64,000 bases of DNA from Tubulanus polymorphus. Lineage: Eukaryota; Animalia; Nemertea. Positions 15,831-48,200 of this stretch are shown here, one piece after another. A model generated the notes under the pieces. That model did not search any database. It saw only the letters and a list, made by a program, of their open reading frames with translations, and was not told the DNA's origin. The stretch spans positions 10,194,850 through 10,258,849 of the forward strand of contig NC_134029.1 of the NCBI RefSeq assembly GCF_964204645.1. The letters run 5' to 3'. The translations under genes and the position numbers were made by a program. Every line of letters begins with the position of its first letter. The stretch's first letter is position 1.

Positions 15831-16733
15831 GATTTTAATTAGCATTAAAACCTACCACCTGTTTTGTGCTAGTGTAGCCCATCGGATCAAGCTGTCTGAA
15901 CTCATCAGCATTAAGTACTTTAGACCTTTTTGAATCCTAACTGTAGCTATATTGTATTTTTTTTCTAATTTTCATTAAGTAATAATACTACATTGCAATC
16001 CGAGATGATTATAATATAACGGACACAGTAACATATCAAAATTGATATCAGCCTGGGCAAAAACAAGCACCAGATGGTGCGTCATCAACATCGTCAGAAA
16101 TGCTTGGATCTTTATTCGGGATTGCTGTGGCGTCAGCTGTATCGGTTTTGTGGGGATCAGCTGAACATTATGGAGATAGGAGTATAAATAGAAAGACTGC
16201 TTTGATAGACTAGATAGAAGAGGTGTCAGCCTATATCCGAACTTGTATTATGCTATTCGAGAGCAAAATCTACCAAGTACATTTCGGCTTTAAAAATCTG
16301 GAACAGGTTTGATCAGTAAGTTGGTCGTAAGCCCGCCGCACAAATTGCGGATGAAAGATGTTTAATCGTTGGCAACTTTCGTTGAAATTGCTGTGCAATG
16401 CGATGGCACATTTGACTACATGTTCACGGCCAGATTACTGACCGCCAGTGGCCCCACCAACAGTTGTTGATGACACTTCACCGGAAAAATGCCTTGTTAT
16501 TTTGGTGAAAGACGAATTTCAGACAGATAATCCGTCCACAAAAATTTTTGAAATGGTATTGTTTTAGGGACAGCCTGTACTAGCGATTTCGATGCCCCGA
16601 TTTGAATATTCTCCAAGCCTAAGACGCTGATCCAGGCCGTATTCCATGTATCCGTGAATGCAGTGGTGAGAAAGTACCCATTTTAACTTAAGACTTTTAC
16701 CAAGAGATTTGTGGACTTTTATAGATGCTGAAT

Positions 16734-17067
16734 CAGTGTTTTCAATAAGAAATTAACAAGCCGGGTCCCTTTGAAGAACAGGAGGGTACCATAATATGTC
16801 ACAGTCCCTGAAACAAAAGCTGGTTTCTTGAAAAAACAGGCGGGTCCTTTACAAACAACAGACGGGTCTGAGACCTGGCTTTAATTGGTAACACTGAATG
16901 TTATGTTCAGTGTTTTCAATAATAGCCAGGTCCCAGACCTGTCTGTTGTTTGTAAAGGACTCGCCTGCTTTTTCAAACCAGCTTTTGTTTCCCGGACTGT
17001 GACATATTATGGGACCTTCCTGTTTTTCAAAGGGACCTGGCTTGTTAATTTCTTATTGAAAACACTG
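16734..17067. mobile_element. Inverted pair of about 160-bp MITEs with CAGTGTT...AACACTG ends, forming a long foldback
   Basis: Copy 1 (16734-16896) and copy 2 (16908-17067) are near reverse complements of each other. Confidence 0.8.
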
Positions 17068-17617
17068 ATGTTTGGATAGGGGTTTGATCACCATCTGATT
17101 GTTAGAAAACTCACAATCAATGTGGACCTCATACACACCTCAGGAGATGAGCTTTTGAAATTTGGATTTTCCGCTTTCCTTGTAGAAATGGCTATACATA
17201 ATGTTCAAGTGTATCAAGTTTTGTCGAAATCGGTCGAGATCTTGTTAGTTATTGTTTAGGAGCGTCACCTAGGGGTCAACATACGTATTGGACATCATGT
17301 ACCAAGTTAACCCGATAGACCCCAGAACATCCGCCGACCTTCGACTTGTATCTCGGCAAAAAAACCACTGTACGATACTGCCACCTATAGTTTGAGGTGG
17401 TCAAAGGTCAAACTTTTGACCAATGATTGTCCAAATCTATACAGGAATAGAAAGCCTGTATAATTATCTTCAAAATAACTAATGGTTGAAATGAATCATG
17501 TTCAATAGTTTTCACACTGCATCTACTTAATCTTTATATGCAATCCAATGGGCTTACGTATTAAGTTGCGGCGTCTAATGGGTTAATTCAAAATAGCTTT
17601 CGAGGATAACATAGTCC

Positions 17618-19659: not shown

Positions 19660-21605
19660 TTCCTTAATTTCATGCGGCATGTGTTTATGGCAAAGACTTT
19701 AAATAGCCATAAGTTTAGGAGAAGTTTATCGCTGATTAATGAAAACAAAAAATCTTTTCTGGGCTGAACACATTGATAAAGTACAGGTAGATCAAACTGA
19801 TTCCTTAATAAATGAAATTACGTACGGACCGAAAGTGGCATGGGTCGAGAGCACATACATGTGTGTGATCGACAGACAGTACGCAGGTACGCCCAGCCCG
19901 GCCCATGTCGTCTGCGTGACATAAACCCGAATCAGAAATGAGCTGTGGCCGAGGCTACGTAGCAGTAGCAAAATGAGTGCGTGGGCAGGGGTGGGGAGCA
20001 ATTGGACATTGATTAGGCCTCGGTGAAAATGGTGTCTATTTAGAAATCAGAGATCGTGTTTTTAATTAGAAACGATGTGGTACACTCACCATCCAAAGAG
20101 CTGAATCAATTACATCAGAGTAGTATCCGTTCATCGAAGCTTTAATTATCAATATATATATAAACTCCTCCGCTGGGTCCTATGGTCTCGGCTAGATGGG
20201 CCGAAAACGGCAATTCTCTTTACGTTTCGACAATTATTAACTGTGTACTGGCCATACTCAGCTACAAACCGTAACGTGACACTGTAAACTACCTCCCGCC
20301 ACGTTTCCGGTAGCATCGAGTCCATTAGGTTTAAATAGGGTATTCAGGTTGTAATGGATTCGCCAAATAGCGGTTAGGTTCGAATCCTAACTTATTTCAG
20401 CGGAATAAGTAAAAGTCCACTGTTCGTGGTTTAAACGTGATTGTCTGACAGTTTCCGGGTTTATCTTAACTTCATCATCAGAGAAATGAAAGTCACAACA
20501 GTTGTCAGTTAAGATTTTTACTCAAGGCAACGCAGGCGACTGTGCGCCGGAACGGGCCCTGGGACCTTATTCACTAACGTTACGCAAGGTTGCGTGATTT
20601 GCGTTGCGAGACCATTTGCGATGAAAATCAGTTTGCGTTGCGTGGTATTCACTTAACTCCTCAGAAAAGTGATTCGCAATTTTTCATGCAACGGGAACCA
20701 GTCCAATTGTAAAACCGCTGCAGATTGATTGTGGATTGCAGATATTGCGTCAATATATTATTTTACCGCCTCCATAGCTGGATTCTTGAGGCATGACCCC
20801 ATTGAAAATAATTAGTATTTGATTGGATTTATCATCATCAATCATCATATCTAAATTAACATAGCATCTTAAATATTCATTATCCATGATGGGGCCGGAA
20901 TAGACACGTGTACCTTTCCTTATGATCGCCGGATTTCATGAGTTTTAGAATTCGAAAATACATAAATATTTATTAAAATTCTTTTCTTGATAAAATAATT
21001 TTGTAACGATGAAGTCTGCCCCCACCATAGGGCAAATGTATTGGTGAATGAGTCGTAACTAACATATATATCTATATAAAATAACTAATTGACTATTTTA
21101 GATAATTATTCTATATATACTATAGACATTGGATTAACAGATTATCTTTTTTACATTAATCTACAATGTCTGATACGAACCCATGTGATCAGTGCAGGAT
21201 CGTTCAACTGCGTGGTGGATAGAAAATATGTTTCTTTTCGACTTTCTATCTGCCAGAGCAGCTCGTTTAACTGTTGTGATGGATAGAGAAATTAGGTTTC
21301 TTTGCGATTATTTAACCGTTCAGAGCAGGATCTATAATGCAGCGCTTTCTTATAACGTTGATCGGTTGGTTTTCGTTCAATAAACATATTCCAATTATTT
21401 CAAAAGTATTTTTGTGTGTATTATTAACTGGCAAATGAATCTCATTTCTTTCCTTTTCAATTATTCTATTCTTTAATTATTATATTACTTCATGTTTTGG
21501 AAATTGTTTCCGGGTTGTCGAGAACAGGATGTTTATGTAAATATGTCAGTAACCATATAGTGTTCACTCCCCCTTAGCCTATGTAGCGAATCATCATATA
21601 TATTA

Positions 21606-21797
21606 TGTGATGGAATATGTCCATCAGTCGTTTTCTATGTTGTAACTGGAGGGTGCTGCCCTCTCTCTCGAAAATACAGAACAATAGGTGATTGTGTTAA
21701 TATCTTTTGTCCGCCTTTTTACTGGTTTTTGGGCTCTCAGAGTCGATATTTGGAGGAAACTTCTACTGTGGAACAGGCAGAATAGGACCTCGTTACA
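21606..21797 (+). repeat. 5' LTR
   Basis: tgtgatgg...cgttaca; identical by eye to 29319-29510. Confidence 0.97.
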
Positions 21798-21799
21798 TC

Positions 21800-21820
21800 T
21801 GGTGGCAGCGTAGTGGGATT
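21800..21820 (+). promoter_or_regulatory. Primer-binding site, tRNA-Leu-like
   Basis: TGGTGGCAGCGtaGTGGGATT, 2 nt after the LTR, resembles the complement of a tRNA-Leu 3' end. Confidence 0.75.
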
Positions 21821-22039
21821 TGATTGTGAAAAAACCAGTTGAAATTGAGTTGAAGCGGTGAACACGTTTTTCTCCGTTTAGTCTGTGTAAATTACTGTTA
21901 CTTTTTGTGTGTACTTAACGTATTTTTTTACCTACTTCGTAAACCCTAGTACATATTTAGTATTTTTAAGTGCCTGTTTCCCCTACATTTATTTGCGGTC
22001 CTGTATTTTCTGTGTCATTTATATAAAAGAATAGTAATT

Positions 22040-23158
22040 ATGTCGGATGTTGAGAATGATGTGTGTGAGCCCTTGGCCTTATCTAGGCCTATGTCACCAA
22101 CGGCCGGAGCTGCACATCATGACCTCCTGGTTAGTGGGGAGGGTAACCTCTCGTTAAAACCAAAACGTGGCCGTCCAACGAAGACAAAAGCCGAAAATTT
22201 GAAAACATCTGAGGATTCCATCCTCCAGCGACTGACTGAAGTGATGGAGAGGGTCGTGACGAGAGATGCACCCACCCCGAAAATGCACAATATTCCGGCA
22301 CCCAAGCCCTATACCATGGGACACAATTTCCGCGTTTGGCTCGAAAGGTTTGACGCGTTCGCTGACCTGGCCCAGATTAGTTCCCGCATCAACGGGGGCG
22401 AACAGCGTAAATCACACCTGATGATGCGACTTGACCATGAGGCATACCAGGCTGTCTCGAACCTACGTCTCGACTCGAGCCTGTCGTATGATGATTTCTG
22501 TCGGCGGCTATCATCCCGTTTCCAACAAACAAAGACTGTGGATGACTTTAAGATGTTGTTGAAAGGGAGGGACCAAAAGACAACTGAATCTGTGGAACGC
22601 TATGCCGACGAGTTAGCAGAGCTGGCAAGGAACGCATACCCTGGCATTGCCTTCGAGCTGCAGGATGAATTGGCCAAAGACCAATTCCTTAAAGGTAATA
22701 GCCTACCCGTCTCAGCGAAGCAGTCAATGTATGCGGCCGAGCCAAGTTCGTTGGCTGCAGCAGTCGCTCAAGCACGGACTCTGGAAACAGCGAGACGGTT
22801 GACTGAGGGCACGACTCATAAACAAAAAGTATCCGTTAACCAGACCCAGCTCGACTCGACTAGCTCAGCCATAACCAAACAACTCGACGAATTGAAGTCG
22901 ATGATGGGAACGCTGATGACTCGAGTAGGCCATTTGGAAGCAGTTGTCTCTGGTAATGGCAATCGTCGACCACCCGCCGATGACAAATGTTGGCGTTGCA
23001 GGGATGCAGACCACCCCAAAAACTTGTGCCCACAAGTTAAATGCTATAATTGCGGGGGGAGTGGTCACTATTCAAGTAACTGCCACCTACCTAAGGGAAA
23101 CCAGGGAAACGAGAAGCGGGGTTTTCAGGGGGGCAGTGGAAACCCCATCAGGAAATAG
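22040..23158 (+). CDS. gag: Gag (capsid region, two CCHC zinc knuckles, N-terminal AT-hook-like motif)
   Basis: CWRCRDADHPKNLC and CYNCGGSGHYSSNC knuckles; QKTTESVERY major-homology-like region; KPKRGRPTK. Confidence 0.93.
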   Translation: MSDVENDVCEPLALSRPMSPTAGAAHHDLLVSGEGNLSLKPKRGRPTKTKAENLKTSEDSILQRLTEVMERVVTRDAPTPKMHNIPAPKPYTMGHNFRVWLERFDAFADLAQISSRINGGEQRKSHLMMRLDHEAYQAVSNLRLDSSLSYDDFCRRLSSRFQQTKTVDDFKMLLKGRDQKTTESVERYADELAELARNAYPGIAFELQDELAKDQFLKGNSLPVSAKQSMYAAEPSSLAAAVAQARTLETARRLTEGTTHKQKVSVNQTQLDSTSSAITKQLDELKSMMGTLMTRVGHLEAVVSGNGNRRPPADDKCWRCRDADHPKNLCPQVKCYNCGGSGHYSSNCHLPKGNQGNEKRGFQGGSGNPIRK

Positions 23159-23166
23159 TCCCCCCT
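23095..23166 (+). promoter_or_regulatory. -1 programmed ribosomal frameshift signal (G GGA AAC twice, plus predicted H-type pseudoknot)
   Basis: Heptamers at 23095-23101 and 23104-23110 are in the gag frame. Stem 1 pairs 23118-23126 with 23138-23146; stem 2 pairs 23127-23133 with 23160-23166. The -1 frame is open into pol. Confidence 0.85.
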
Positions 23167-23208
23167 GTACCGCTGTATATACCCCCCGCAAGACGTAGGA
23201 AAAATCGG

Positions 23209-26200
23209 ATGAATACGGCAAATGGTCTAACGTGCGATGCAAGTAGAGATGCACCTATTGATGGTTACCATCATACTAGCCCCACCACCGTGAGACCATC
23301 AAACCATATTCAAACGACACCTCAAGATGGATATGTGGTTGCTGGCCCGGCATGTGATTCTAGTGGAGATACACCTACTGATGGTCTGCATCCTACTAGA
23401 ACCATCACTGTTAGACCACCACAACATACCCAAAGTATAGAAGAAAATCGACGTGACCCTTCGGAGAACAGTGAGGCTCCCAGTCCGGCTACGGAAAACA
23501 CTTGTCACAAGTTGCGCGACACCAAGGTTCAAACAACAGGGACAGAACCAGCCCAGACGAGCTTAGTTACAAACATCGGAACAGTGAGGCTCCACGCCTC
23601 GGGCCTTTTCTGTGATGCCGTAGTAAATGACCATTCGAAAGCGGTGGTACTCCTGGACACTGGTGCCTCCTGCACAATCATTAGAGGTTCGGTATGGGAC
23701 TCTAGCAGCCCGACTGGTGAAGCCGCTGCACTGAGGCCAATCGAAGGAATCGTGACAACGGCTACCGGTCAGCCAATGGAGTTACGTGGATTAGCTGATG
23801 TATGTCTGAAAGTTGGAACTGAAGAATTTCATGTCCCCATGATCGTCAGTGAGGATTTGGCACAAGACTGCTTGCTTGGAAGTGATTTCTTCGAGAAATA
23901 TGGCTGCAACATAGATTACCGTAACAAAGTGCTCCGCTTCGGAAGCCTCAGCGAGGTGCCTGTCCGCCAGAGCCCCAAACGCGCGAGCGCTTGCAGGGTG
24001 TTTATCAGTAAGAGCCAAATCATTCCAGCTGGATCCGAGGTGGTGGTAAATGGATACATGAAACGGAGTTATGCTCATAATAATTCGACCTCAGGGATGA
24101 TCAGCAGCTGTGGACGGAATAATTTTTGCACTGGGAAAACACTGGTGGTACCGGAGGCAAACCAGATACCGGTTCGGCTGGCTAACTTCTCGGATGAGGC
24201 TTGTAGAGTCGACAGGGGCCAGACTATTGGTCTATTCTGCCCCCTACAGTCAGTTGACATCATGACTGTCGACGACCATGCTCAAAACCCGTCAACTCCA
24301 AAAATCCAGCTGCAGGGTGATGACAATACTGAATTCAAGGACCTCTTGAGAGAATTGAAAATCGACCAGCTTGAAATCCCCACTGACATGAAAACACAGC
24401 TTGTTGACATCATACGGGAGCTAAAGTCAGTATTCTCGATGGGAGACTTTGACATTGGTCGAACAGATTCGCTTGAATTCGAGATTGACACCGGTGACCA
24501 CCCACCGATAAAACAACATCCCCGTCGGCTACCCCCCGGTAGGAGAGCTTTTGTTGAGGGGACGACCAAGGAGCTTTTAGAACACGACTTGATCCGGCCA
24601 TCCACCAGCCCGTGGTCAAGCCCAATAGTTCTAGCGAAAAAGGCCGACGGTTCCCTGCGTCTATGCTGCGATTACCGCCGACTCAATGACGCAACAGTCA
24701 AAGACGCTCACCCATTAGGTCGAATAGACAGTACCCTAGAGGTTTTATCGGGCGCAACCTGGTTCTCGTCCCTCGATTTAACTAGCGGATACTGGCAGGT
24801 CCCAATAAAGGAATCAGACAAACATAAGACCGCATTCACGACTGAAAACCATCTATTTGAGTGGAATGTCATGCCGTTTGGAGTCTGTAATGCCCCGGCG
24901 TCATTCAGCAGACTGATGGCAATGGTACTGGATGATGTTGCATGGAAAACATGCCTTATCTACCTGGATGATGTAGTAGTGTTTAGTCATGATCTACCAA
25001 CCCATCTGACGCGATTACAAAAGGTATTTCGTTGCTTTCAGAAAGCCGGTCTCAAGCTAAAACCGAGGAAGTGCTCGCTTTTCCAGCGGCGCCTCAAGTT
25101 TTTGGGGCATGTAGTAAGCGAGGCCGGTGTCGAAACCGACGGTGCCAAATGCGATAGAGTCAGGGATTGGCCGACCCCAACGTCAGTTACCGAACTGCGT
25201 AGTTTCGTTGGTCTTGTGACATATTACTCACAATTCATCAAGGATTTCGCCGACTTGACAGCCCCGCTACACCGCCTTACGAGGAAAAATGAACCATTCG
25301 TCTGGACATTCAAGCAACAACTAGCGTTTGACGGACTGAAAGAAAAGCTGACCAGCTCCCCTATCCTGGCATTCCCAGATTTCTCGGAGGGTGCTGGAGA
25401 GTTCATTTTGGACTGTGACGCCTCTAACTGGGCTATCGGAGGGGTGCTGTCACAACTACAACACGATGGTTCTGAGAGAGTGATCGAGTACAGTAGCCGC
25501 ACGCTGAAAGGTGGAGAGGAGAACTATTGTGCCACCAGGCGCGAAATGTTGGCCTTGGTTGACATGATTGATCACTTCCGCCACCATTTACTAGGCAGGA
25601 AATTCAAAGTTCGCACAGACCACGCAGCACTCAAGTGGCTACAAACCTTCAAAAACCCTGAGGGCCAAGTGGCTCGGTGGCTTGAACGCCTGTCGGAATA
25701 TGATTTCGTGATCGAACATCGAGCTGGAAGCAAACATTTGAACGCAGACGCCCTGTCTCGCATCCCTAAGAGACAGAGGAAACATGGGGACTGCCCAACT
25801 TGTGGTGACACTGGTCCATCTATATACCAGGTGACTGCAAAACATCAGGGCGATTTGACAGCGCACTCCACTGGCTTGTCCAGGAACAAAATAATCGAGG
25901 CGCAAGTAAATGACCCCGAAATATCAGAAATTAGGGAGTTCTTGGCCGGAGATGGGGTCAAGGACAAGAAACGGCTACAACGGTGTGGTAGAACAGCGAG
26001 GAGCCTCTATAGTCTGGTTGAGCGTCTAGAGCTTTTAGATGGCATTCTTGCGCTTAAACCACTTCCGGGGGCTACCTCAACGAGACACCGAGTGGTACTA
26101 CCCATTTCACTGACTGATGGAACCATAGGAGTCATACATCAGGGATTTGCCGGGAAACATCTCGGTACCAAAAAGACAGAGTGCAAAATTAGGGAAAGAT

Positions 26201-27723
26201 TCTGGGTATTAGGCCTCTCAGCTAGGGTCAGGGATTTTGTTCGGGGCTGCAAAACTTGCCAAGAGTGCAAGTCCCCGTCCAAACTACCAAAAGCCCCAAT
26301 GATGTCTACACCGGTAGGGCGACGCTTCCAGCGTGTACATATAGACATCGTGGGCCCATTACCGAGAACCCGCCGCGGCAATGTCTACATTCTAGTGGCT
26401 CAAGATGCATTCACTAAGTGGCCCGAAGCATGGCCAATTCGCACGGAAAAGGCCTCCGTGGTGGCACGTGCCCTTGTGAACGAGTGGGTCACCCGTTACG
26501 GCTGCCCTGAATCCATCCACTCGGACAAAGGCACGAACTTCGAGTCGAAAGTTTTCATGGAGATGTGTAGGATCTTGGCTATTGAAAAGACCAGAACCAC
26601 TGCCTACCATCCTATGGGCAATGGGCAGGTGGAAAATTTCAATAAGTCCCTGAAGGCCATGCTGACTACAGCCGTCAATGAGTGTGGAACAAACTGGGAC
26701 GAGGAACTACCAGCGTGTTTGATGGCATTTCGTTCAAGCGTCCAGCACTCCACTCTTGAAACGCCGTTCTACTTGATGTACGCCGAGGAAATGTCACTAC
26801 CAATCGACATCAGCGTAGGCTTGCCCGAGGACCACCAACCAAGGACTAAGTATGGCATGGACCTCTCTGACCGCCTCACTAAGTCACACAACATTGTTCG
26901 TGATCGACTAGTGATGGCACAAAGGCGTCAGAAAATGGACTATGACCGTTTCGCAAAACGCGGGGGTTACAAGGTCGGGGATCGCGTGTGGCTGATGAGC
27001 CATTTCTTGAAGAAGGACGAGGCATCTAAGTTCCGCCGGAAATGGAAAGGGCCTTACGTCGTGACCGAGAGACTATCGGAGGTGAATTACAGGGTTGTCC
27101 TGGAACCAGGCGCCGATCCGAGGGCGGTGAAGAGAAAGCGGGTTGTGCACTTCAATGATATGAAACCGTGCTTCCTGTCTAGTGAGACCGTGACCATAGG
27201 TCATAAAAAACCTAGACAGGAACCGGTTAAAATGACCGATCCCGAGGAGCAACCAACCCTCAATGACGACGAGGGGGAGGAAGATGAAGACTGTGTCTGG
27301 ACACGGTCACACCCCGAGACAACGGCAGTTATTCAAGAACCTCTTGTAACAAACCCTACCCAAAACCATCGCGGGCCTCCTACTCAAAACCGCTCCAAGC
27401 CTGGGCCTTTGAACATTACAAACACTGAGGGGCACAGAAGACTCAGGCCCAGAGTAGGGATCAGGCGCCCTAGTCGGTTCGTAAACTCATGTACAGTCAA
27501 TAACGATGATTCGCTAGCCAACCAAAATAGGGCCTCAGACCCTTTGGTGGATCCAAACACACTTATAGGACCTCCAGTCGCCTCGGACAAGATTGAGCAG
27601 AACAACATTTTTGATATAGAACTGATCCAAAATTGCCAGAAATGTCGCGAAGTTCGGTCCCGGATTAACATGAGGAAAGGCTACTGGTTAGAAATGGGCC
27701 GGTACCTTAAATCAAAGGGTTAA
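23209..27723 (+). CDS. pol: Pol polyprotein (protease, RT, RNase H, integrase); probably entered by frameshift at about 23110
   Basis: LLDTGA protease; LRLCCDYRRLN and YLDD for RT; CDAS...DALSR for RNase H; HHCC zinc motif, D-D-E (HIDIVG, SDKG, VENFN) and GPY motif for integrase. No stops in 1504 aa. Confidence 0.97.
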   Translation: MNTANGLTCDASRDAPIDGYHHTSPTTVRPSNHIQTTPQDGYVVAGPACDSSGDTPTDGLHPTRTITVRPPQHTQSIEENRRDPSENSEAPSPATENTCHKLRDTKVQTTGTEPAQTSLVTNIGTVRLHASGLFCDAVVNDHSKAVVLLDTGASCTIIRGSVWDSSSPTGEAAALRPIEGIVTTATGQPMELRGLADVCLKVGTEEFHVPMIVSEDLAQDCLLGSDFFEKYGCNIDYRNKVLRFGSLSEVPVRQSPKRASACRVFISKSQIIPAGSEVVVNGYMKRSYAHNNSTSGMISSCGRNNFCTGKTLVVPEANQIPVRLANFSDEACRVDRGQTIGLFCPLQSVDIMTVDDHAQNPSTPKIQLQGDDNTEFKDLLRELKIDQLEIPTDMKTQLVDIIRELKSVFSMGDFDIGRTDSLEFEIDTGDHPPIKQHPRRLPPGRRAFVEGTTKELLEHDLIRPSTSPWSSPIVLAKKADGSLRLCCDYRRLNDATVKDAHPLGRIDSTLEVLSGATWFSSLDLTSGYWQVPIKESDKHKTAFTTENHLFEWNVMPFGVCNAPASFSRLMAMVLDDVAWKTCLIYLDDVVVFSHDLPTHLTRLQKVFRCFQKAGLKLKPRKCSLFQRRLKFLGHVVSEAGVETDGAKCDRVRDWPTPTSVTELRSFVGLVTYYSQFIKDFADLTAPLHRLTRKNEPFVWTFKQQLAFDGLKEKLTSSPILAFPDFSEGAGEFILDCDASNWAIGGVLSQLQHDGSERVIEYSSRTLKGGEENYCATRREMLALVDMIDHFRHHLLGRKFKVRTDHAALKWLQTFKNPEGQVARWLERLSEYDFVIEHRAGSKHLNADALSRIPKRQRKHGDCPTCGDTGPSIYQVTAKHQGDLTAHSTGLSRNKIIEAQVNDPEISEIREFLAGDGVKDKKRLQRCGRTARSLYSLVERLELLDGILALKPLPGATSTRHRVVLPISLTDGTIGVIHQGFAGKHLGTKKTECKIRERFWVLGLSARVRDFVRGCKTCQECKSPSKLPKAPMMSTPVGRRFQRVHIDIVGPLPRTRRGNVYILVAQDAFTKWPEAWPIRTEKASVVARALVNEWVTRYGCPESIHSDKGTNFESKVFMEMCRILAIEKTRTTAYHPMGNGQVENFNKSLKAMLTTAVNECGTNWDEELPACLMAFRSSVQHSTLETPFYLMYAEEMSLPIDISVGLPEDHQPRTKYGMDLSDRLTKSHNIVRDRLVMAQRRQKMDYDRFAKRGGYKVGDRVWLMSHFLKKDEASKFRRKWKGPYVVTERLSEVNYRVVLEPGADPRAVKRKRVVHFNDMKPCFLSSETVTIGHKKPRQEPVKMTDPEEQPTLNDDEGEEDEDCVWTRSHPETTAVIQEPLVTNPTQNHRGPPTQNRSKPGPLNITNTEGHRRLRPRVGIRRPSRFVNSCTVNNDDSLANQNRASDPLVDPNTLIGPPVASDKIEQNNIFDIELIQNCQKCREVRSRINMRKGYWLEMGRYLKSKG

Positions 27724-27969
27724 ATCCTATATATATATTTAGTACCCTTGTATATAACCCTGCCTATATATTTACTTAGTTTTAGTAGACAGTTTATTAT
27801 CACTTGTAACTGGTGGTGACTAGGATTTCAGACCCCTTGCACCTCCTGATGGTATGCTTGGGACCACCCACCTTGCATGATTCGGGTGGTATCTGAATGA
27901 ACGGAATCTCCGCCATTTAGTCTTGTCGTTGCAGCCAACTCATGTTTTGAACTATTTATCGTTTCTAGC

Positions 27970-28803
27970 ATGGACTGTATCGAGTTAGACCAGTTATCTA
28001 GCCTCCACGAGGCGACACAGACCCTTAAACGGCAGGTCTCGAAAGAAGTCTGTTCCACCCTTCACAGACAGGACAAGACCCTCAGCGAATTGAGAGCCAA
28101 GATGGGCAGACTTTATAACTCTGCCGTAGAACAGTCGTTTGTGGAGGATCCTGGTCGCATAGTAACCGGTGCGGTAGTAACCGGTCTCAAGACGACAAAG
28201 ACCCGACGTTTTCGGCCGAAGATGAGCACAGCTGCATTTGAGTACATCAGCCAGGAACTAGTGAACGCCCTGGCCGAATGTGGTGGTGACTCCTCGTACA
28301 TCTGGTCGAAACTTGGAGACTTGAAACAGAGGGCAGTTGAGGACTTACCAATCGTGTTGCTGGGAGACTCGATGTTTACGGGGCTAAAGGCCAGCGGCGG
28401 TTTGATTCCAATTTGCCACCCTGGTGAACGACTCGGTGATTTGTTGGAGTACCTCCCACATGTATCCTTTAGGGCAAGAGCGATTGTGGTCACGCATGGT
28501 ATGAACCATGCCGGCGATTATGGCAGGACGACAGAGGAGTTGGCGGAAGTTTTGGCGCTACTCAAGGGCAAGCACCCTTCTGTTCCCCTTTTCCACCTAC
28601 AGACCCCTGTCCCTCCTTGCTGGCGTGGTGACCACAATCGGGTAAACAACATCAACCGGGTTAACGTCTTCGCCCTCCGTGCCGGGTTCCAACAGGCCGA
28701 CCATCCAGATATCCTGGATTCTGATTTTGTGGGGATCCACTACAAAAAGTCGGCCATGCACTATGTCTGTCGGGAAATAATCCGTGTGGTAGATCGCGCC
28801 TGA
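27970..28803 (+). CDS. ORF3 of the Gypsy element: N-terminal coiled coil plus SGNH/GDSL hydrolase-like domain
   Basis: Block I IVLLGDSM, block II HPGER, block III VVTHGMNH and block V DFVGIHY. The ORF is intact at 277 aa and lies inside the LTRs. Confidence 0.8.
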   Translation: MDCIELDQLSSLHEATQTLKRQVSKEVCSTLHRQDKTLSELRAKMGRLYNSAVEQSFVEDPGRIVTGAVVTGLKTTKTRRFRPKMSTAAFEYISQELVNALAECGGDSSYIWSKLGDLKQRAVEDLPIVLLGDSMFTGLKASGGLIPICHPGERLGDLLEYLPHVSFRARAIVVTHGMNHAGDYGRTTEELAEVLALLKGKHPSVPLFHLQTPVPPCWRGDHNRVNNINRVNVFALRAGFQQADHPDILDSDFVGIHYKKSAMHYVCREIIRVVDRA

Positions 28804-29306
28804 ATGTGTTTCCTTCGGTACCTAACGATGGTTCACCTGGAGTCGCTTATTCTTTGTAATGTTAGTGACAAAAAGCCATTCAGTCCAAATACTACCACAC
28901 GTGACCCCCCAGATGTAGCACACCCCATTGCGAACAGTTTCTTTCCGTTTTCTTTTGATTGTATTTTTCAGCTTCCCAGGACGAGGAACAGTGGCAGAGG
29001 GGCAAGCCAAGTGCAGTGTCCATTGGCCGTATCTACCTTTTGATGGTATAGATATTTTTGGTTAGACACTACGCTTAGGTGCGCCCCGAAAACAAACCAC
29101 AAACCATTAGTGGAGATCGAAAGCTGCATGTATTATCATCACTGAGATGCAACCCTAATGCGAAACAACGACTACGCCATGTTAGATGTCTACTGTATCC
29201 AGAGCCGAGAAGTTTGGAGCTTAATATACTATAATAAGGACTATAATTTAATTTGTGTAGATGTTTTGACTATATATTCCTGTTCAAATAGGAGTTTGAA
29301 CAAGTT

Positions 29307-29318
29307 GAAGGGGGGTGG
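29307..29318 (+). promoter_or_regulatory. Polypurine tract
   Basis: gaaggggggtgg immediately before the 3' LTR. Confidence 0.85.
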
Positions 29319-29510
29319 TGTGATGGAATATGTCCATCAGTCGTTTTCTATGTTGTAACTGGAGGGTGCTGCCCTCTCTCTCGAAAATACAGAACAATAG
29401 GTGATTGTGTTAATATCTTTTGTCCGCCTTTTTACTGGTTTTTGGGCTCTCAGAGTCGATATTTGGAGGAAACTTCTACTGTGGAACAGGCAGAATAGGA
29501 CCTCGTTACA
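29319..29510 (+). repeat. 3' LTR
   Basis: Identical by eye to the 5' LTR. Confidence 0.97.
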
Positions 29511-30509
29511 ATTAGCATGCGCATGTGCAGTCGGGACAGGTGGTTAGCCTGTGTGTGACCGAAATAAACGAGTATCTTATGATCTGTAGACTGAACCCGT
29601 CGTGTTTTTAGTCTTTCTCTTCTTTTATCTCCGAACCTGGTCTTCTTAGTGACTCGCAACGCCACACGGGTTTCTTAGGACGACGCCATTTACGTGTACG
29701 TGGCGCCATCTACTGACATTTCGGCGCATAATTTTGCGACGCAGAAATGTCTTCGTGGCGTGGATACGTCTTCGCGGTGCGGATTTGTCTTTATCGCGGC
29801 TTATTACAACGCATAACTAAACACAGTCTTGGCAGGGATTGTCGCCCATAGATAAACAACAAAAATGTTCAGTCACACACGCTAACGCCTCAGCCCAATA
29901 CAATCACTCATTAAGTAAGTGAGTTTATTGCTTTGAACCGGCAGCAGTGCCTCGTAGGTTGCACTAAGTGGGTTAATTGCTTTTTTATTCACTATCATCT
30001 TCGTCGTTCTACTTAAAATTTCCAGAAACTGCGATGTCACATAGATTTAGGGAGTTGCACCTAAAACCTGCTTCGAAAATATAAGTAATTTGCCTTTTAG
30101 TAATAATTTTCATTGCCATCCTAATTAACAATTTGAAACTGTGATAACGCAAAATTTCATTTAATTTCCATTCCTGCGGAAGTCTTGAAAAATGCAATGT
30201 CAGTGAAATCAGGTGTCAGCCATGGAAGATGCACAGGTTTGGATGCCTATTTTATTATGTAACCGCCATATCAGTGTTTAGTGTAGGTCTACTTATAAGT
30301 TTGTTATCATACAAGTTAAGTTATGTAAAACTTTGAATCAATAAACAATAAACGTAAACCAATTTTTCACAGAAATTGCCGACAGTTGCTTTCGGGCACA
30401 ACCAACCTAAGCTCAGCTGCGATGCGACAGAACTGAGAGAATGCATGAATTCCATCCAATCAGAGACCGCATACATAGTACAAATTATTACCACTAGCGT
30501 CGTCATGAG

Positions 30510-37400: not shown

Positions 37401-40400
37401 GAGTTCAGTATGTAGAATGTAATCGCTACTTCCGCTTCCGTGTTTATCGGGTCCTCCCTAGAAACAGAAAAACGAACGGCTCAAGTCCAGTATACGGACA
37501 AGTAGTCCCCGAGACCGCATAACACTTAGAAATAAATTCTAAATCAGTAACCATCCACATTGCTTGATTGAATTCGAAAATTCTCTATGCAAGATTAAAA
37601 TTTCATTAAGAATGGTTTATTCATACCGCGACATTCATATAACAACACGATTTCAACTTTTCAGGATGTGGTTTGTTCTAGGGTCCATTCTGAGTCTGTA
37701 TACCTTTTTATGAAATGATATAAAGTCCATTCTGACGGTTTCACCCGTGAAATAGTTCCTTCCGTTGACCACGTGGTCGAGCAACAGCCAACATAACCTG
37801 GAAAATCTATATGAAACGGCAATGTACAATATATGTACATGAACATGTACTTCATTTTCAGTAACGAGGCCAGAAACTTCAAAGAAATCATTATTTCATC
37901 GTATTGGGGTTTTAGAGAGTTTGTACCGGTATCAATGTTTCGTGGCGCCTGCCAGGGGTCGGTAGTTTATATCATTGTCGGTTGTAGAACATTTCTGACG
38001 TCAATGAGGCCCTTGATTTTCAGAAGCAGCAAATACTAGGCAGATCCAGAAGATTACAATTTCAAAACCCCTAGAGTGTGCATAAAAGGGCTGTACCTTG
38101 TAAGTCGGCAGGCCGCTGCCGGGCCTCCGAATATAAACCATTCTCCAGCCAGGCGTACCCCTTCAGAACTAGCGTCGTAGTAATTCAGATAACCACGTGA
38201 CGTCATATTTATCCGTTCGAACACGTGATGGTCCGGTTCGTTCCATGATTCAAATATCCACATGCGAACGTACGACAATCCAAATAGTTCTACGGAAATA
38301 AATCCATTGCTTGCAAATAAAGCTTTCATGTTGAGTTATCGGATTCGAACCTGGGACACTCCTGTTTGTTCCTCCATTCAGCACTCAGACTGATGAAGGG
38401 TTCAAATCCAGTCTGAAAATGGGTTCATCATCCTATATGCGGGAATTTCACAAAGGCAATGATAAGAACTAATTTTGATATTTCAATTCGGTAGATTTCT
38501 CACTGGGCGCCGCTGCGTCCGAGTGAGATTGTTTCTTTTGATTTAGTTTTCTAAACATCATATGTAATTCCATACGCAGTTAGATTGATTACAATCAGAA
38601 CCCTAAAAGCTACAAGAATAGTCATGAAAATATAGGAGTTAGACCTGTATATCTCTGCATGACCAGGCATCTATTCACACGTTGGAAACAAGATTGTGTA
38701 AATAGTACGACCAGTAACAAACGGCGGAAGAAAATCCGTTTATATGTGATAGAATATTGATATGCTTTTTTTTGTTCCAGAATCGTCTGAAATACAGAAG
38801 AAGTCTTTCAAAATTTATTATAATAAATTTTGAAAGACTTCTCGTTGTCGCGAGTCACAACTACGGCCCATTTTTGCCATTTGATAACTATGAAACAGCA
38901 GTAGAACCTAAATTATAATTTCGTGTCCGAAATATGCCCAATCATCGCCACGACCGAGAACTTCTGCATTATACATGTGTACACTGAATAAAATAAGTTA
39001 GTTAACACATTTTGTTGAACGATTGTAGTCGCCTTTTCAAATCAACATATCACAGCTATATTCAAGATAAACGAGATCGGTAAAAACATCCGATAGAAAA
39101 GAATCTAAGCTTTGGAGATCAGTAAGTAATATGTAAATAACTCGGTTTATGAATGCTGACGGCGACTACACCTACGATTTAATTCAAAATTTAAATTTCT
39201 GTTCACAATCATAAAAGATGATGCTTTATTCATCTGTGAATTATGTTGCACAATTTGACCTAGATACGAAGTTAATGCAGGTTATTCAGTATTTTCATTA
39301 AAAAAACTAGCGTAGCCTTATGGAGGAATATCTCTCATTTTGGGATAGAAAATGCTTGAATTTTGAAGGGAATGCCCGGAAAATCTACCCATCAAGAAGC
39401 AATGACCAAACAGACAGTTGAAATTATTTTAAAAGTTCCATGTTATCAAGAAATTGAACTGTTTTCCAAAATATTCTACATTCCAAAACTTCTACAGTTG
39501 TCAGTGAACACTCTTGAGTAAAAGTGATCCAGCAAACACTGCAACAGTGAAAACTCAGAACCAGCTACTTTCACCTGAACCTGGCCCAAGTCTTTAGTGT
39601 CCTCGATTACCATTATATTCATCGAAATTCAATTTTTATTTTCAAAAATCAGGATCAAGGAGGTTCTGCAGTTCTGCAGGTGTCGGTTCACGGTTCATTT
39701 TCGCAGTCTGTTCGCAGGAAATTGTGGAACTGGGTCATTGCAAACTGTGGAACTGGGTCATGGTGAACTGTGGAACTGGTTAATAGAAAAATGTGGACGA
39801 ACTGGGTCATAGAAAACTATGATTTATTGCGAGTTTTGTGAATTATTTGCTCTTACCTACAAAATGTTGGATCAGACCCCGCACTAGATTCCGCCATTTT
39901 ATTATTTGATGATGATCTTCGAAATCAGTAAAATGTTTCGACGGATTGCCCATCAGCTCGAATACGGGAACCAGTCCAGTGGACTGAACGATGGCGATGA
40001 AGCGGTCGAGTTGTGAGTAGTCCCAGGCTTCTTTACCTTCAGGCACGGATCTGTGAGTGGAGAGAGAAAAGAGAGAGTGGAATAGGGAGAGATTGAGGAA
40101 GAAAAAGACAGGGAAAGAGATGGTATAGAGAGGGGGAGGTGGCGATAGTGGGCAAAAATGGATGACTTGAATAAGAGTACGCGGCAAGAGAGTGAGTGTG
40201 GAAGAGAGGGCGGAAGGGGAAGAGAAGAATGATAGCAGATGAAACTGGTTTTTACCATAGCAGTGAACTTCACTAAATATCAATACAGAAGTAATAAAAA
40301 TCAAAACGAACTTTTGAATAGTGATTAGATCTAACAACCAGTGAACTCTAATGTATCGCATTCCCGAGAACGGAACCGCTCCGATAATCGCTAGATTATG

Positions 40401-40900
40401 TTCAACATCTTGACTGGTGAAAAATCGGCGTCTCTCGTCAGGACTTGGTGGACTGTATGGGTGTAGCAGCAGGGGCAGCGGTAGCAGCAGCAGCATTCCG
40501 AGCAATGGAATAAATTCGAAACAGAAATCAGGAGTTATACAGAAGAAAATGGAGTAAATTCAAATCATGAATTGAACAATTTCGAATAGTAACTGAGCCG
40601 ATTTAAAATTGAATGTAATGGCTAAAATACGACACAGCCAGTATTAAACTTGCGAACCCGTGTACAATAATACTCATGTATTCATTGATTTTTGAATAAA
40701 CTGAATCGTGAATCGATCAGGTTCGAATCCCGACGAGGGCACATGTTTTTAAATGAAACTTACCAAAAACCTGTACTCGCCCAAAACGGTTCCACGCGCC
40801 CTATGACTTCCTCCCCGCACACTAGGACGTCATAGTTTATGGGCGAAACGGCCCCACATGTACCAGAGACAAAAATAAACAGAAACAATGAAATTTTCAT
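34416..40900 (-). CDS. IDUA: Alpha-L-iduronidase (GH39). Approximate exons: 40900-40764, 40452-40312, 40050-39857, 38289-38097, 37797-37704, 37457-37339, 37153-37075, 36893-36635, 36389-36228, 36126-36005, ~35515-35398, ~35243-35182, ~35042-34916, ~34508-34416
   Basis: Signal peptide, then [27 protein letters not shown], catalytic [26 protein letters not shown] nucleophile region, [18 protein letters not shown] and C-terminal VRFIDYW. GT-AG boundaries were read manually. Confidence 0.93.
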
Positions 40901-41428: not shown

Positions 41429-41789
41429 TTTGTTTCAATCTTTAGAGGATATTTTAAAACATGATTTCTCATAATTGCTTCATGATGATAAGATTGAGTA
41501 ATATTCCATAATAGGCCTACTTAGAATAATTATGCACAGCCTTTGTACGGTTTAGATATTACATCCTCGAATTTTGTAACTGTTCATATTTTTGAAAATT
41601 CATGAACGTTTCGGAGCAGCATGATTACTTCACAATCCCATCAAATTGGATATAGAGGCATTCCTGCAGTATGCTTGCAAAGTCTCAGCAGAATACACGA
41701 GTTATCGTGTTTTGAAATTCGCACCTTCCAATATGCATTCAGAAAAAACATGATATTTTTGGGTCTCCAACATGTGAGACAGGTGCCTG

Positions 41790-42277
41790 GAAAACAGACT
41801 GGGGAGATAGACCATTTGCCAGCTATCGGTCTTAGCGACCACAATGTTCTTCTGTTCGAAATAAATGCTCCACTTTCTTCTAACTCATCTAGAGGCGCTA
41901 ATACTGTGAGGCTCATGTACGATTCTGCAGACTACAGCTCAATAAATAAAAAACTTGTAGAAGCCAAAATGACAGATGAGATACAAAAATTAGATGTTGC
42001 CGGGAGTTGGATATTTTTCAAGGATTGCCTTCATCTATGTAGCGAAAAGTATATCCCGAAACGATGGAATCGGAATAATAAGAGTAAACCGAAGTGGCTA
42101 TCCAGAACTATTATTCACAAGGTAAAGACAAAACATCGTCTGTTTAAGAAATACAAGGCAGATAGGTCGCGAGCGAATTATATGGAGTACAAGGCAACCA
42201 GAACAGAGGTTAAGAATGAAATCAGGGTTGCAGTTAGAAACTTCGAAAAAGGATTGGCTACATCAGTTAAGACTAAC
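41790..42277 (+). mobile_element. CR1-group LINE, 5' part (end of APE domain plus linker)
   Basis: GLSDHNVL, KPKWL and the ending ...SVKTN, which continues as PMDFWAY at 48601. Confidence 0.85.
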
Positions 42278-45200
42278 GAACACGAAGAAAGTGACACGGA
42301 CGATACGTGCGAAGTTGCTGCAAAAACAACAAAACCAAGCACTGCGCCACCAGCACCAGTCCGAATGCAGAAAAGGAATCAAACAAAGAATGGAACTAAA
42401 TCAAAGACCAAAAAAACTACTTAAGGTGAGGTATTCATAACGTTTTACTAATGTAGGCAAATGAGACATAAAATGGCGGACGTGTTAGAACGTATTAGAT
42501 TACTATCACTAAATTGCAACGGCTTAGTTTACTCGAATGCTCGAATTTTCGGCATTTTTGAAAGACTTAAAAACTATAATATCATTTTACTTCAAGAAAC
42601 TCACATATCGAATGACTATGAAGTTCAAAAAATATTTAAGCCCTTGAGGAAAGATTTTGAAATTATATCTTATATTATAAACGAAAGAAAATGTGGGGTA
42701 ACCATTGGTATTCGAAAATCTTTAGACTATACAATTTTAGATAAGACTGTAGATAGACAAGGGAGATTGATATCCTTGAAAATATCCCTATTCAGCCAAA
42801 TTTACAATATCGTTAACATATATGCCCCAAACAAAGGAACGTGATAGGAAAATTTTCATAAGCAATATCAGTAATTATCTTAATATAAACCCTAATGAGC
42901 ATACAATAATAGCCGGAGACTTTAATTGTATAGAAAGTCCCATAGATCGTGATTCAACATCCGTCAATTCATCAATACGTAGTGGTTCAGAACAATTAGC
43001 TAATTTATGTCAACAAAACAGATTAGCAGACGCTTACAGACTTAAAAACCCAGACACACCAGCTTTCTCTCGAGTAGCAAAACGCAATGACAACGTCATT
43101 AAAACAAGAATAGATCGATTCTATGTATCAGACACTTTACAGCCAGACATAGAACAGGTGAAACATATCAACTCTATTCACTCCGATCACAAGATCGTCG
43201 AATTGACAATTAACACTTCTCAAGTCAAACTTGGCAAGGGATACTGGCATCTCAACAAAGAACTACTTAAAAACCCTAATTACATCACTATGATAACAGA
43301 ATTTTGGAATCAATGGCAAAATCACAAACAGTTTTATGAATCGATTATTGAATGGTGGGAAGAGGGCAAAATTCAAATAAAACAAAGATCTATAAAATTT
43401 GCATTAGAACTCCGCAGAATTAAAAACAATCTCAAAAAATCATTAGAATCTGAATTATTCATTCTCGAAAAACTTTCTGATTTAGGAGTAAACACTAACC
43501 AAAATCAAATTGAATATCTTACCAAGCGTATTCGTGACTTCGACATTGAAAAATCAATAAGTGCAATGATAAGATCTAAAATTGAGTGGAGAGAATTTGG
43601 GGAGAAAACAAGTACCTTCTTTGCAAATAATGAAAAACAACGCGCTAAAAAGAATCACATCAGGACTCTAAAAAATAATCTGGGTGGAATTAAAACTGGT
43701 CAAAAAGACATTGAAAAAATTCAGCTAAAATTTTATAAAGACTTATATAGAAAAGAAGAAACGGATTTAGAAACCCAAAATCTATTCCTGAGTAATCTAC
43801 CTAAAATTTCTAATCAAAAGAAACTCCAGCATGACTCCGTAATAGATATCGATGAATTAACAAATTGTCAAATCTTTCCAAAATAATAAATCCCCTGGTA
43901 TAGACGGACTACCTATTGAATTTTATAGAATATTTTGGCATACTCTCCAAAATGACTTTCTACAATAAGTACATGCGTGTATACAAGAAAATAGACTTTC
44001 TAAATCAATGCAAACTGGTATTATTTCATTAATTCATAAGAAAAATGACAAAACAGACTTGAAAAATTGGAGACCAATCTCATTACTATGTACAGATTAC
44101 AAAATATTCACAAAAGTTCTCGCTAACAGATTAATTAACTGTCTAACAGACATAATACACCCAGACCAGACTTGTAGCGTTAAGGGACGTCGAATTCAAG
44201 ACAATGGTCATATCATAAGAGACTTAATTGATTACGTTAATAATGATAATTTAGAAGCATTTTTAGTGACCATCGATCAAATGAAAGCTTTTGATCGTGT
44301 TGACTGGCAATATATGTTTAAAACTTTAGAATCTTTCGGTTTTGGAGAAAATCTAATTCGGTATATCAAGACTTGCAATTCAAATCCAAAATCCAGAATT
44401 AAAAATAACGGCTTCTTAACTAAACCCTTCACCTTAGAAAGAGGCGTAAGACAGGGATGTCCCATGAGCGCAATACTCTACATAATAGCAGCGGAAGAAT
44501 TAGCAATTAAAATACGCGAAAACAACAATATCAAAGGAGTAAAACTACCAGATGACACAGAAATTAAAATCAAACAATTTGCAGATGACACTACATTATG
44601 TCTAACCGACTTAGAATCATTGAATCAAGTCCTTACAACCTTAACCTTGTTTGAAAGAGCATCAGGTGCAAAAATTAATAAAGATAAAACTGAGTGTATG
44701 TGGATAGGATCTTGGAAAGCTAGAAACGATAAAGCTTTAGACTTAAATTCGAAGAAATCAATGAAAATTTATGGAATTCATTTCGGCAATGAAAATACTG
44801 ATGATTTAAACTGGAAAATAAATAAAATTCAAAATATCATAAATCTTTGGCGCCAAACTAAATTATCTTTACATGGCAAAAAGGTTGTCATAAACTCTTT
44901 TATACTACCTATATTATGGTACACTTCCGAGATTTTTCCAATTCCAGATAAATATATCAAAATCTTTGAACCAAAAATCATCAATTTCCTATGGGATAAT
45001 GGAAAACGCCTTGTCAGTAAAGACATAATACATAAAAAAATCGAACACGGAGGTCTCGACTTACACAACATTAAATACAGACAACAAACACAGGCAATTA
45101 AGACGATAATAAACCACGCTCTAAAACCAACACACTGGAAACCACTTATCAACTACAATCTGCAAAAATATCTAGGCCCAGGCTGGAATATTTCAAACAT

Positions 45201-48200
45201 CATTCACAATGAAATACCCAAAAAATCATTACAAATGACTACTACAGACATTTATTAAAATCATGGACAGTTTTAAAACAACATCTAGTTACAACTGAGA
45301 CCATTACCGAAATTCTGCAAAAACTTATTTTTGGCAACCCAAAAATTAAGCTCAACAAGAAAACCAATTTCACAGAATACATACATCACGGTATAATCAA
45401 TCTACGACATCTATTCGATAATCGTGGAAACTACAAAGCATTTAACGAAATTCCATTAACAAATAAATTTAAACACACATGTATATACAATGCGATACCG
45501 CAACATTGGAAACTAATTCTGTCTGACCAAAATTTAGATCCCGATGAATTACCAAAAATCTATGTACAATTTGGTAATATAGTGTGTACTATAGGAAAAC
45601 TTTTATCATCTCAAATCTATCGAATTCTATTATTAAAAAATCTCCATCAAATCACACCGATAGGGCAAACCAAAATTACTGAAATTTTAAATGCTGATCT
45701 GAACTGGCCGGAAATTTGGAATGAAGTTTATAATAAACATATTGATAGACGATTTAGTGTTATTCATTGGAAATTACTACATAATACTCTGGCAACAGCT
45801 TCAAAACTTGTACTTTGGAAAATAAAAACTGATCCAAATTGTAAAATTTGTGGACGCGCGGCAACGAATGACCATGTAGTATTCTCATGCACAGAAGCAC
45901 GGCAATTATATTCATCTATACAACCAATCATTCAACGCATACTAGACACACCAATAAATATCACTCAAGACATCGTCTACACAGGAATTACTAAAACAAT
46001 AGAAAGAGATTTCTTCAAACGCACACTCGCGAACTACCTTTTGTTTCTCGCACAATCCATTTTGTACAAAAATCACTACAATTTAGAACAAGGCTCTGGC
46101 CGCATCAACACTATAATTTATTTCAAAAACTCGCTAATAGATCGCCTAAACCAAGAAATCATGCTTCAACAAAACCTTCATATTTGGACTCTTAACAATG
46201 TACTTATACACCTGGATGCAAACGGACTGAACGTAGTAAACAGAATCACAATCGACACCATTAGCGTAGTCTATTAATTAAACCCAACGCTTTTTTGACG
46301 CCTTATAAAACGTTACCATTATGAAACCTAACCAATGTTAACCATTCAGCGTCATTTTACAAACGACAACCGTAAATCGATGTGCAAAACGTCACAGGTT
46401 TATGTGTACACATACAAGCTATTTGGCAAAATATTATTGATAAAGATGTAGAATGGCTCCCTTTGATTATATAATGACGTCTATTTGAACGTCGAAATGT
46501 TATATTGCATTGAATATCATGAGAAGACGTATTGTAATAGTAAAGGATGTATGATTATATCAGGAGCGGCAGGCATAAATAGAAATGATAAGTAAATCGG
46601 ATTATTCGGTTAAATGGCGGATGTATACACGATTTGGAAGTCTGATATAAAAGTCTGATATAAAAGTCTGACATGGGGATGCTAGTGGAATGACGAAGCT
46701 ATCTACGATCTGAGTAGGGCCGGCGTGAATTTCATCGGCGGCTACAAGCGGTCTATATAAAAACGTGTTAACATATAATTTCAATATTCAAATGTTTTAG
46801 AAAATATGTTCGATATAAGGGGTATGCAAGTTTCATGAGATTAGCAATTTATAATAGCATAGCTGTCATATACGGCTCCGCGTCCATTGATGGCATGTGT
46901 ATAAGGTGACAATTCAATTCAATACTTTATTGATCATTATTACATTGAAATTCCGGGATAAAATTTAAAAAACTTACAAATCTTAAAATAAGAAAATACA
47001 AAATACAAGACACACGGTTAATTCATACAGAATAACATGAATAAGTTCTTTAAATGACAATGTCTACTTCAACCCAGACTCAAGTCTAGGATATCGAGTG
47101 ACAGCCAAACCGGGCCCCAGGACCGGGCCGGCTGGCTACACGATATGCTCAACGTCATGACGAAGCAAACATCCAAAGAACTCTTTCTTCAACCATGGAG
47201 GTAATGAGGTTGCAAACCAGCTTAGAGGCAAAAGTGAATCGAAGTCGGTCACAAGTTGACAATTTTTTTAAAATTAGACCAGTTGAAGACTGTATCATCT
47301 ACCCAATCGCCAAATCTCATAATTCCCCAAATTTCTTAAAACTTCGATTTCAAATTTGCAATTCCACATTAGCTTCTCCCAGAAATTCTACATTTTTTCG
47401 CAGGCGTCAAATAATTTATTAAAGTTAATTTTCTTGTTTATTACTTACACCTACATATCCCGACTTTGACACTTGAGGTATGTTCTGATTTAGATCGAAC
47501 AGGGATGACGGTCTATCAATACGCATAGAACTGTCTGACCACTTTTGCTCTATATCATCACATACGCATTAGTTTATTAGTTTACTGTTTCTGATGTTTT
47601 GACTGTAAACTCAGTCTCATTGCCACGATAGCTGGAACGCTGCCTCCGTTTGTGACCTTAGGATAGCAAGCTCAGTCTATCTACGCGCAATGGTGACTGG
47701 AAAGTTGCCTCTTGACATCAGTCTCATTAAAAGCTACCAAAAACCTAATCGTGACAATGTGAATAAAACCCGATCAAGACTGTATATATGTGTGTGTACA
47801 AACATGTATTCAATATTCACGTGTCTGTGCCGCTTTCTTACTGACGGTCTATCAATACGCATAGCACTGTCCGTTTGATTGCGATACATTCACGGACCTA
47901 ACTCACTGTATATTAGAAACACATAACTGCTCCCAGTGTAAAACTTATACTTTTAGGCAAATTCAGCACCAGATGTGAAGTACCATCTGCGCACCCCTTG
48001 ACGGAGAAACCCATCCTCATTGGAGCTGCACCGTCGATGTCATACAACTACACTTCGGATACCCCAGGGCCATACTCTCATCTGGAAAATTTGCATTTCG
48101 AAATGTGCTTTCTTCCTATCTAGTCAACACGCGGGATCATCAACTTAGAGGACTTCTACATCAACATCTACCCGAGAAAAAAAAACCACAATAAACTATC

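Follow-up and report, generated by a model that had tools for sequence, protein, structure and literature searches.

Structure of the element and its surroundings

The window analysed, a stretch of 64,000 nucleotides from the genome of Tubulanus polymorphus, contained a complete Ty3/Gypsy retrotransposon at positions 21606-29510; the element and all of the features assigned to it below lie on the forward strand. It was bounded by a 192-bp 5' LTR that begins with TG and ends with CA (21606..21797) and by an identical 3' LTR (29319..29510), and was flanked by a 4-bp target-site duplication, ATTA (21602..21605, with the second copy at 29511-29514). A primer-binding site (TGGTGGCAGCG.., 21800..21819), which we take to be of the tRNA-Leu type, and a polypurine tract (29307..29318) were recognised in the sequence. 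The gag gene (22040..23158) encodes 372 aa with a Retrotrans_gag domain and a CCHC knuckle (Pfam E values of 6.8e-5 and 2.6e-4). It is followed by pol (23095..27723), in which Pfam analysis identified protease (PR), reverse transcriptase (RT), RNase H (RH) and integrase (IN) domains, in that order, ahead of an acidic/basic tail. Both gag and pol were open; the first ATG of pol is at 23209, which gives a product of 1504 aa, and the GPY motif of the integrase was intact, reading WKGPY in the window Pol protein.

The pol frame is -1 relative to gag and opens at 23095, where two in-phase G GGA AAC heptamers are located (23095..23110). This heptamer is presumably a recognised frameshift motif, and the pair would likely direct a -1 frameshift from gag into pol. 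The element is young and multi-copy. Other copies carried a 30-base in-frame insertion at 23291, in a short repeat region of the 5' part of pol that precedes the protease.

The element was found to be inserted into a solo LTR of 242 bp that belongs to another family (21516-21605 and 29515-29666, forward strand) and has its own 5-bp target-site duplication, CGGGT. Joints from 21601 to 29511 in the genomic reads, which share 4 letters, were considered as a possible empty allele; this reading was dropped because the target LTR is itself repeated and the reads may stem from other copies. One contig continued from the 242-bp LTR into a different sequence resembling a primer-binding site, which indicates that full copies of the 242-bp-LTR family exist elsewhere.

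The window also contained a LINE-like element (41621-45258), the endonuclease ORF (42822-43886) and RT ORF (44008-45258) of which are in separate frames, with a 267-aa ORF preceding the endonuclease ORF. Two host genes were located on the reverse strand, a single-ORF Sprouty gene (3871-4623) and a partial gene of glycosyl hydrolase family 39 (39843-40496). A long, near-perfect, MITE-like inverted repeat (16732-17069, arms of 95 and 71 nt) and a 275-aa ORF with no Pfam match (49531-50358) were also observed.

ORF3 is a third gene conserved within a small Gypsy subclade

A third open reading frame, ORF3 (27970-28803, 277 aa), was located between the end of pol at 27723 and the polypurine tract. 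The preliminary description of this DNA had reported an intact ORF in this position within an intact element, and the identical LTRs, the target-site duplication and the open gag and pol genes confirmed that report. At NCBI the ORF3 protein corresponded to uncharacterised T. polymorphus gene models, three accessions in all, and the protein P0002 was 100% identical to ORF3 over 277 aa. Median genomic-read depth was 298 over gag-pol and 279 over ORF3 and exceeded the depth of the low flank bins 13-26-fold; since the two depths were similar, most copies of the element carry ORF3. Three read joints that delete most of ORF3 were seen in 4, 6 and 14 reads.

A search of 1.84 billion representative sequences returned 12 matches, comprising ORF3 itself, 10 relatives and one LysM protein. 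The latter (P0133) was rejected as spurious, its match being confined to residues 14-70. The relatives were 24-34% identical to ORF3, and the nine that were looked up, as well as P0131, were all unnamed or annotated as hypothetical. The alignment used below (A2) has 11 rows, including the 10 relatives. A scan of metagenomes yielded two ORF3 loci, L001 and L002, from 207 candidates; L002 was added separately, bringing the number of relatives to 11. No ORF3 relative was found on any of 78 candidate viral contigs, and word-index searches returned either ORF3 alone or ORF3 with two relatives that were already known.

At both metagenome loci fetched, the ORF3 relative began shortly (108 and 171 bases) after a pol-like tail that is acidic and then basic; these short contigs provide the DNA context for two of the 11 relatives. 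The pol tail at L002 matched the end of the full Gypsy Pol P0008 at 76 of 76 positions. In addition, the ORF3 relative P0127 and the Pol protein P0006 are both encoded on JGI contigs of 9139 bases, which suggests that they lie on one contig and represent a third link between ORF3 and Pol. P0008 and P0006 grouped with P0004, P0007, P0009, P0010 and the window Pol in a seven-member clade, for which FastTree support was 0.913 on RT-RH (119 of 121 sequences) and UFBoot support was 50 on RT-RH and 100 on RT-RH plus IN (32 of 119 sequences). A motif in the Pol tail picked out the same seven of the 121 sequences, having been written from those very sequences.

The PR-RT spacer of the window Pol (23932-24318) was conserved in the related proteins at 30-38% identity and seems to resemble a decayed dUTPase-type beta domain. 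When this 129-aa stretch was searched for a dUTPase, no Pfam family was found at E values up to 5 and no PDB sequence match at E values up to 10, and Pfam detected no dUTPase in any of eight related Pols. The stretch may be the remnant of a decayed dUTPase.

Between L001 and L002 the ORF3 products were 51% identical, with saturated synonymous sites (pS = 0.83) and a dN of 0.45. Among Tubulanus copies, the 21 ORF3 variants listed, beyond which the variant table had 418 further rows, comprised 10 synonymous changes, 11 non-synonymous changes and no stops, and a selection test on these 21 gave p = 0.013 or p = 0.15, depending on the null used. Selection was thus evident between the two loci, and the signs of it in the within-Tubulanus variation were weak. 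On comparative sequence grounds, a small Ty3/Gypsy subclade has kept ORF3 as its third gene, under selection over deep divergence. The earlier suggestion that it is an accessory gene of an LTR lineage was supported by its position behind a sister Pol and by the retention of its catalytic residues.

A candidate splice-acceptor site at the start of ORF3

A site resembling a splice acceptor, with a pyrimidine run followed by TAG (27954..27968), ends 1 nt upstream of the ORF3 start codon. All three loci (the window, L001 and L002) had such a pyrimidine run with AG at a distance of 0-10 bases from the ATG, compared to a background of 87 of the 2362 ATGs in the window (3.7%), for a threshold that was chosen after viewing the sequence and in spacers that are T-rich. 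This site suggests that ORF3 may be expressed from a spliced message. A clear splice donor for such a message was looked for and was not found.

The C-terminal domain has a predicted SGNH hydrolase fold

The C-terminal part of ORF3 (residues 125-277, 28342..28803) was identified as an SGNH hydrolase domain by structural modelling and alignment. The Pfam match to Lipase_GDSL_2 was below threshold (E = 0.0087; score of 17 bits, cut-off 32.9). When the 10 relatives were supplied as an alignment, the model reached a pLDDT of 87.5, compared to 46 from the single sequence. In a VIA structure search with this model, all 50 of the matches listed were SGNH-type chains by title; the best match had a Z score of 16.2 and an rmsd of 2.3 over 154 aligned residues, covering model residues 124-277. 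Foldseek likewise matched residues 124-277 to SGNH hydrolases. The predicted fold of residues 125-277 is almost certainly SGNH, as had been proposed from the sequence.

The four SGNH blocks (GDS, G, GxN and H) that had been noted earlier were found again, with S134 at 28369, G152 at 28423, N179 at 28504 and H257 at 28738. Residues D133, S134, G152, G177, N179 and H257 were invariant in all 11 rows of alignment A2. Besides the catalytic His, four other His residues (176, 180, 209 and 245) were invariant in the 11 rows. His180 stands in the place of the Asp that usually follows the block III Asn. These four residues could possibly form a metal site or an internal hydrogen-bond network.

Among the VIA matches were acetyl esterases that act on sugars and on peptidoglycan, as well as the Oskar domain, which is non-catalytic (Z = 14.0); the fold therefore does not point to lipids. 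PAF-acetylhydrolase was among the structural neighbours of the small SGNH domain. The pI of the SGNH domain ranged from 5.8 to 9.5 across the family and was 7.3 in the window protein, so that membrane binding driven by charge is not favoured for the window copy. An Atlas search returned GDSL clusters at 0.87-0.88 for ORF3, which were treated as a lead only. No match for ORF3 was found by PDB sequence search, in which the profile gave only helical chance matches, and NCBIfam and PHROGs searches with 11 members revealed no real family. Serine-esterase activity is predicted for the ORF3 family and is quite probable.

The block V acid is retained in the family

The preliminary description had pointed out that block V reads DFVGIH, and had suggested that catalysis may rely on a Ser-His dyad or be altered. 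The sequence does read so in the window; however, the alignment revealed a two-residue gap here relative to relatives with the DxxH motif. The acid at position His-3 was Asp in 10 of the 11 relatives (nine of the 10 in A2, and L002) and Glu in the remaining one, so a Ser-His dyad was not supported as a family trait. In the Tubulanus form, both the window protein and P0134 are without the block V Asp and are two residues shorter at this point. Judged by its residues, the family is a canonical triad enzyme, from which the Tubulanus form departs.

Among SGNH structures (PMC10792757), the block V DxxH acid is not universal, being present in 23 of 30, and SGNH enzymes are known in which 1-12 residues separate the acid from the base or in which a main-chain oxygen serves as the acid. 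Because such spacings and substitutes exist, loss of activity in the Tubulanus form does not follow. Activity of this form is predicted with middling confidence, with Asp252, Asp250 or a main-chain oxygen as the group that may replace the block V Asp.

The N-terminal domain is a predicted five-helix domain

The N-terminal part of ORF3 (residues 1-124, 27970..28341) is conserved across the aligned relatives and has no named relative. No usable Atlas match was obtained for residues 1-124, and the VIA search with the whole model barely covered residues 1-79. The alignment-based model predicted five helices of 15-20 residues each (14-33, 39-54, 61-78, 87-103 and 109-123), whereas the single-sequence model (mean pLDDT of 46) had one helix at residues 6-56.

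A heptad-rich, coiled-coil N-terminus had been described from the window sequence alone. In the window copy this observation stood, since none of 300 shuffles reached the heptad score of residues 1-60 (a home-made score). It did not extend to the family: none of the seven full-length relatives, to which the comparison was confined after three that were too short had been excluded, had the heptad pattern, with 36-265 of 300 shuffles reaching their scores. Five of these seven have a Pro at positions 36-43. The N-terminal domain is predicted to consist of five helices; the alignment model leans on the relatives, and the window copy may have a longer helix.

ORF3 does not have the features of an envelope protein

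In the window protein, no 19-residue stretch exceeded a hydropathy of 1.24 and no RxK/RR furin site was found. Across all 12 family proteins the maximum 19-residue hydropathy was 0.86-1.38, and none had a hydrophobic stretch of membrane length. RxK/RR was present in three of the 12, at unaligned places. In agreement with the preliminary description, the hydropathy scan and the motif search gave no sign of a signal peptide, a membrane-length helix or a furin site, and on these features ORF3 is not an envelope protein.

Proposed role of ORF3

Our best explanation as a whole, which we regard as an evenly balanced proposition, is that ORF3 is a conserved third gene expressed from a spliced RNA, and that its product, a cytoplasmic predicted deacylase, acts in the docking and release of particles at membranes. 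An RNA spliced from the 5' LTR region to the acceptor at the ORF3 ATG, a step that we hold to be fairly probable, would encode a cytoplasmic two-domain protein with no membrane anchor. In this protein Ser134 and His257, with an oxyanion hole of Gly and Asn, would cut an ester or thioester and remove an acyl group, and the helical domain would act as a tether or oligomer that links the enzyme to a partner. The docking and release of Gag particles at membranes is the weakest step; it is proposed tentatively, by analogy with the ZfL2-1 esterase, and falls somewhat short of an even prospect. ORF3 probably stems from a capture event distinct from those of the rotifer and LINE esterases.

It is unlikely, but not far-fetched, that the protein is instead a deacylase with activity against a molecule of the host, such as an acylated or acetylated protein, a lipid messenger or a sugar, and serves in counter-defence or cell remodelling and not as part of the particle. 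A distinct ORF preceded by an acceptor-like site would suit such a role, as would a small SGNH domain with acetyl-esterases and PAF-acetylhydrolase among its neighbours; the options listed for ZfL2-1 include deacetylation and depalmitoylation (PMC3905857). However, there is no clue to a substrate, and the conserved helical domain would suggest a partner from the element itself.

That the SGNH domain is a binding module for RNA, lipid or metal, similar to Oskar, with catalysis being minor and already lost in the Tubulanus form, is quite improbable. The match to the OSK domain of Oskar and the four extra invariant His residues are consistent with this reading, as is the fact that the ORF has stayed open in many Tubulanus copies with a block V that is without its Asp. 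On the other hand, the invariance of the catalytic Ser, Gly, Asn and His in the 11 rows and the presence of an acid at His-3 in all 11 relatives would be needless for binding alone.

The coiled-coil and esterase module of a LINE ORF1p might also have moved into a Gypsy element, where it would dimerise like ZfL2-1 ORF1p. This origin is likewise quite improbable: the heptads and single helix of the window copy, and a domain order that is the same as in ZfL2-1 ORF1p, speak for it, but the heptads were absent from the relatives, five of which have a mid-helix Pro, the higher-scoring alignment model breaks the helix, the His expected at Asn-4 was absent in 11 of 11 rows, and no CR1/L2 ORF1p was among the 12 matches. 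Finally, the reading of ORF3 as a recently captured host esterase and functionless passenger, to which the weak selection among Tubulanus copies and the deletion of ORF3 from some of them might be attributed, is largely refuted and very improbable, given relatives of 24-34% identity at the same place behind a related pol, with catalytic residues kept and synonymous sites saturated, and no host gene among the named matches.

In its most specific form, the particle-docking explanation states that an undescribed Gypsy subclade moves its particles across or along membranes without env, by means of a separately captured, spliced serine hydrolase that bears a new five-helix adaptor; this full combination is rather unlikely. 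If it were true, and taken together with the cases considered below (rotifer, LINE, Ngaro and the fusion to Pol), SGNH capture would be a repeated, convergent strategy of retroelements, for which a young element with many copies would offer a test protein that is small and under selection. It would also provide a non-envelope route for the trafficking of LTR elements. Retroelements have repeatedly captured SGNH esterases, and the rotifer study showed neither activity nor selection (PMC5408684). The ORF3 family adds catalytic residues and a gene position that have been kept over saturating divergence, likely spliced expression like that of env, and a conserved partner domain that belongs to no known family. 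The natural pair of forms with and without the block V acid raises the question of whether catalysis or binding matters.

Comparison with known SGNH-bearing retroelements

The preliminary description had left open whether a Gypsy element with an SGNH ORF3 was new. To a large extent it is not: Vesta LTR elements of bdelloid rotifers carry a GDSL/SGNH ORF3 behind a Gypsy-type pol (Rodriguez, Kenefick and Arkhipova, 2017; PMC5408684). The catalytic residues of this ORF3 are intact, it has neither a coiled coil nor a membrane helix, and its within-genome variation was reported as neutral. The same findings are restated in two reviews (PMC5718144, PMC6431247). The Tubulanus element resembles Vesta1 in having a separate ORF3 behind a Gypsy-type pol, intact SGNH residues, no membrane helix and a function that is unproven.

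There are also several differences. Vesta has a dUTPase between PR and RT, where the Tubulanus element gave no dUTPase match. In Vesta1-5 the GPY/F motif is reduced to a proline, whereas it is intact in the Tubulanus element; WxGP[YF] was present in all seven members of the Pol clade. The Vesta GDSL clones are 1.3 kb, compared to 0.83 kb for Tubulanus ORF3. In contrast to Vesta, with no coiled coil and neutrality within the genome, the Tubulanus family has a predicted conserved five-helix domain and selection over deep divergence.

Schneider et al. (2013; PMC3905857) describe the ZfL2-1 esterase as an active enzyme with slow turnover that binds liposomes, and include deacetylation and depalmitoylation among its options in their Discussion. 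As in the ORF1p of ZfL2-1, CR1, L2 and RTEX (PMC3905857; PDB 4c1a, 4c1b), ORF3 places a helical N-terminal part before an SGNH domain in a retroelement. However, the ZfL2-1 type is the ORF1 of a non-LTR element, in a gag-like position and with a dimeric coiled coil, whereas ORF3 belongs to an LTR element and has a predicted helical bundle. The ZfL2-1 type is also marked by H191, a transposon-specific His, and by S228. At the H191 place, four residues before the block III Asn, the Tubulanus family has Asn in 10 and Thr in one of the 11 rows, the place being assigned by spacing and not by structural overlay. The domain-swapped crystal form 4c1b did not appear among the Foldseek and VIA structure matches listed, which is compatible with kinship all the same. 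The ZfL2-1-like architecture of coiled coil plus esterase that had been proposed was not supported, given the five-helix domain and the absence of the H191 mark from every row.

Ngaro-like tyrosine-recombinase retrotransposons (bioRxiv 10.1101/2021.08.05.455354) also carry an SGNH ORF. They share with the Tubulanus element an extra 3' ORF, an SGNH domain and an unproven function, but belong to another order of retroelements, with no integrase and with split direct repeats. A further case is P0053, an unnamed and more distant Gypsy Pol in which an SGNH domain (residues 1517-1670) is fused after the integrase. This domain aligned to the ORF3 family (hhalign probability 89, E = 2.3e-6, 149 columns) and, like Tubulanus ORF3, is without the Asp at His-3. 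It differs in its fusion to Pol, in having no match to the helical domain, and in an RT that falls outside the 20-member clade.

No SGNH ORF3 in a non-rotifer Gypsy element was found among the literature matches listed, a search with Repbase, GyDB and most subscription papers outside its scope. Since two Vesta marks and one LINE-esterase mark failed, separate capture is likely, and the ORF3 family, set apart by these marks, is probably separate from both the Vesta and the LINE esterases. The kind of element, an LTR element with an SGNH ORF3, is known; the ORF3 family and its helical domain appear to be undescribed.
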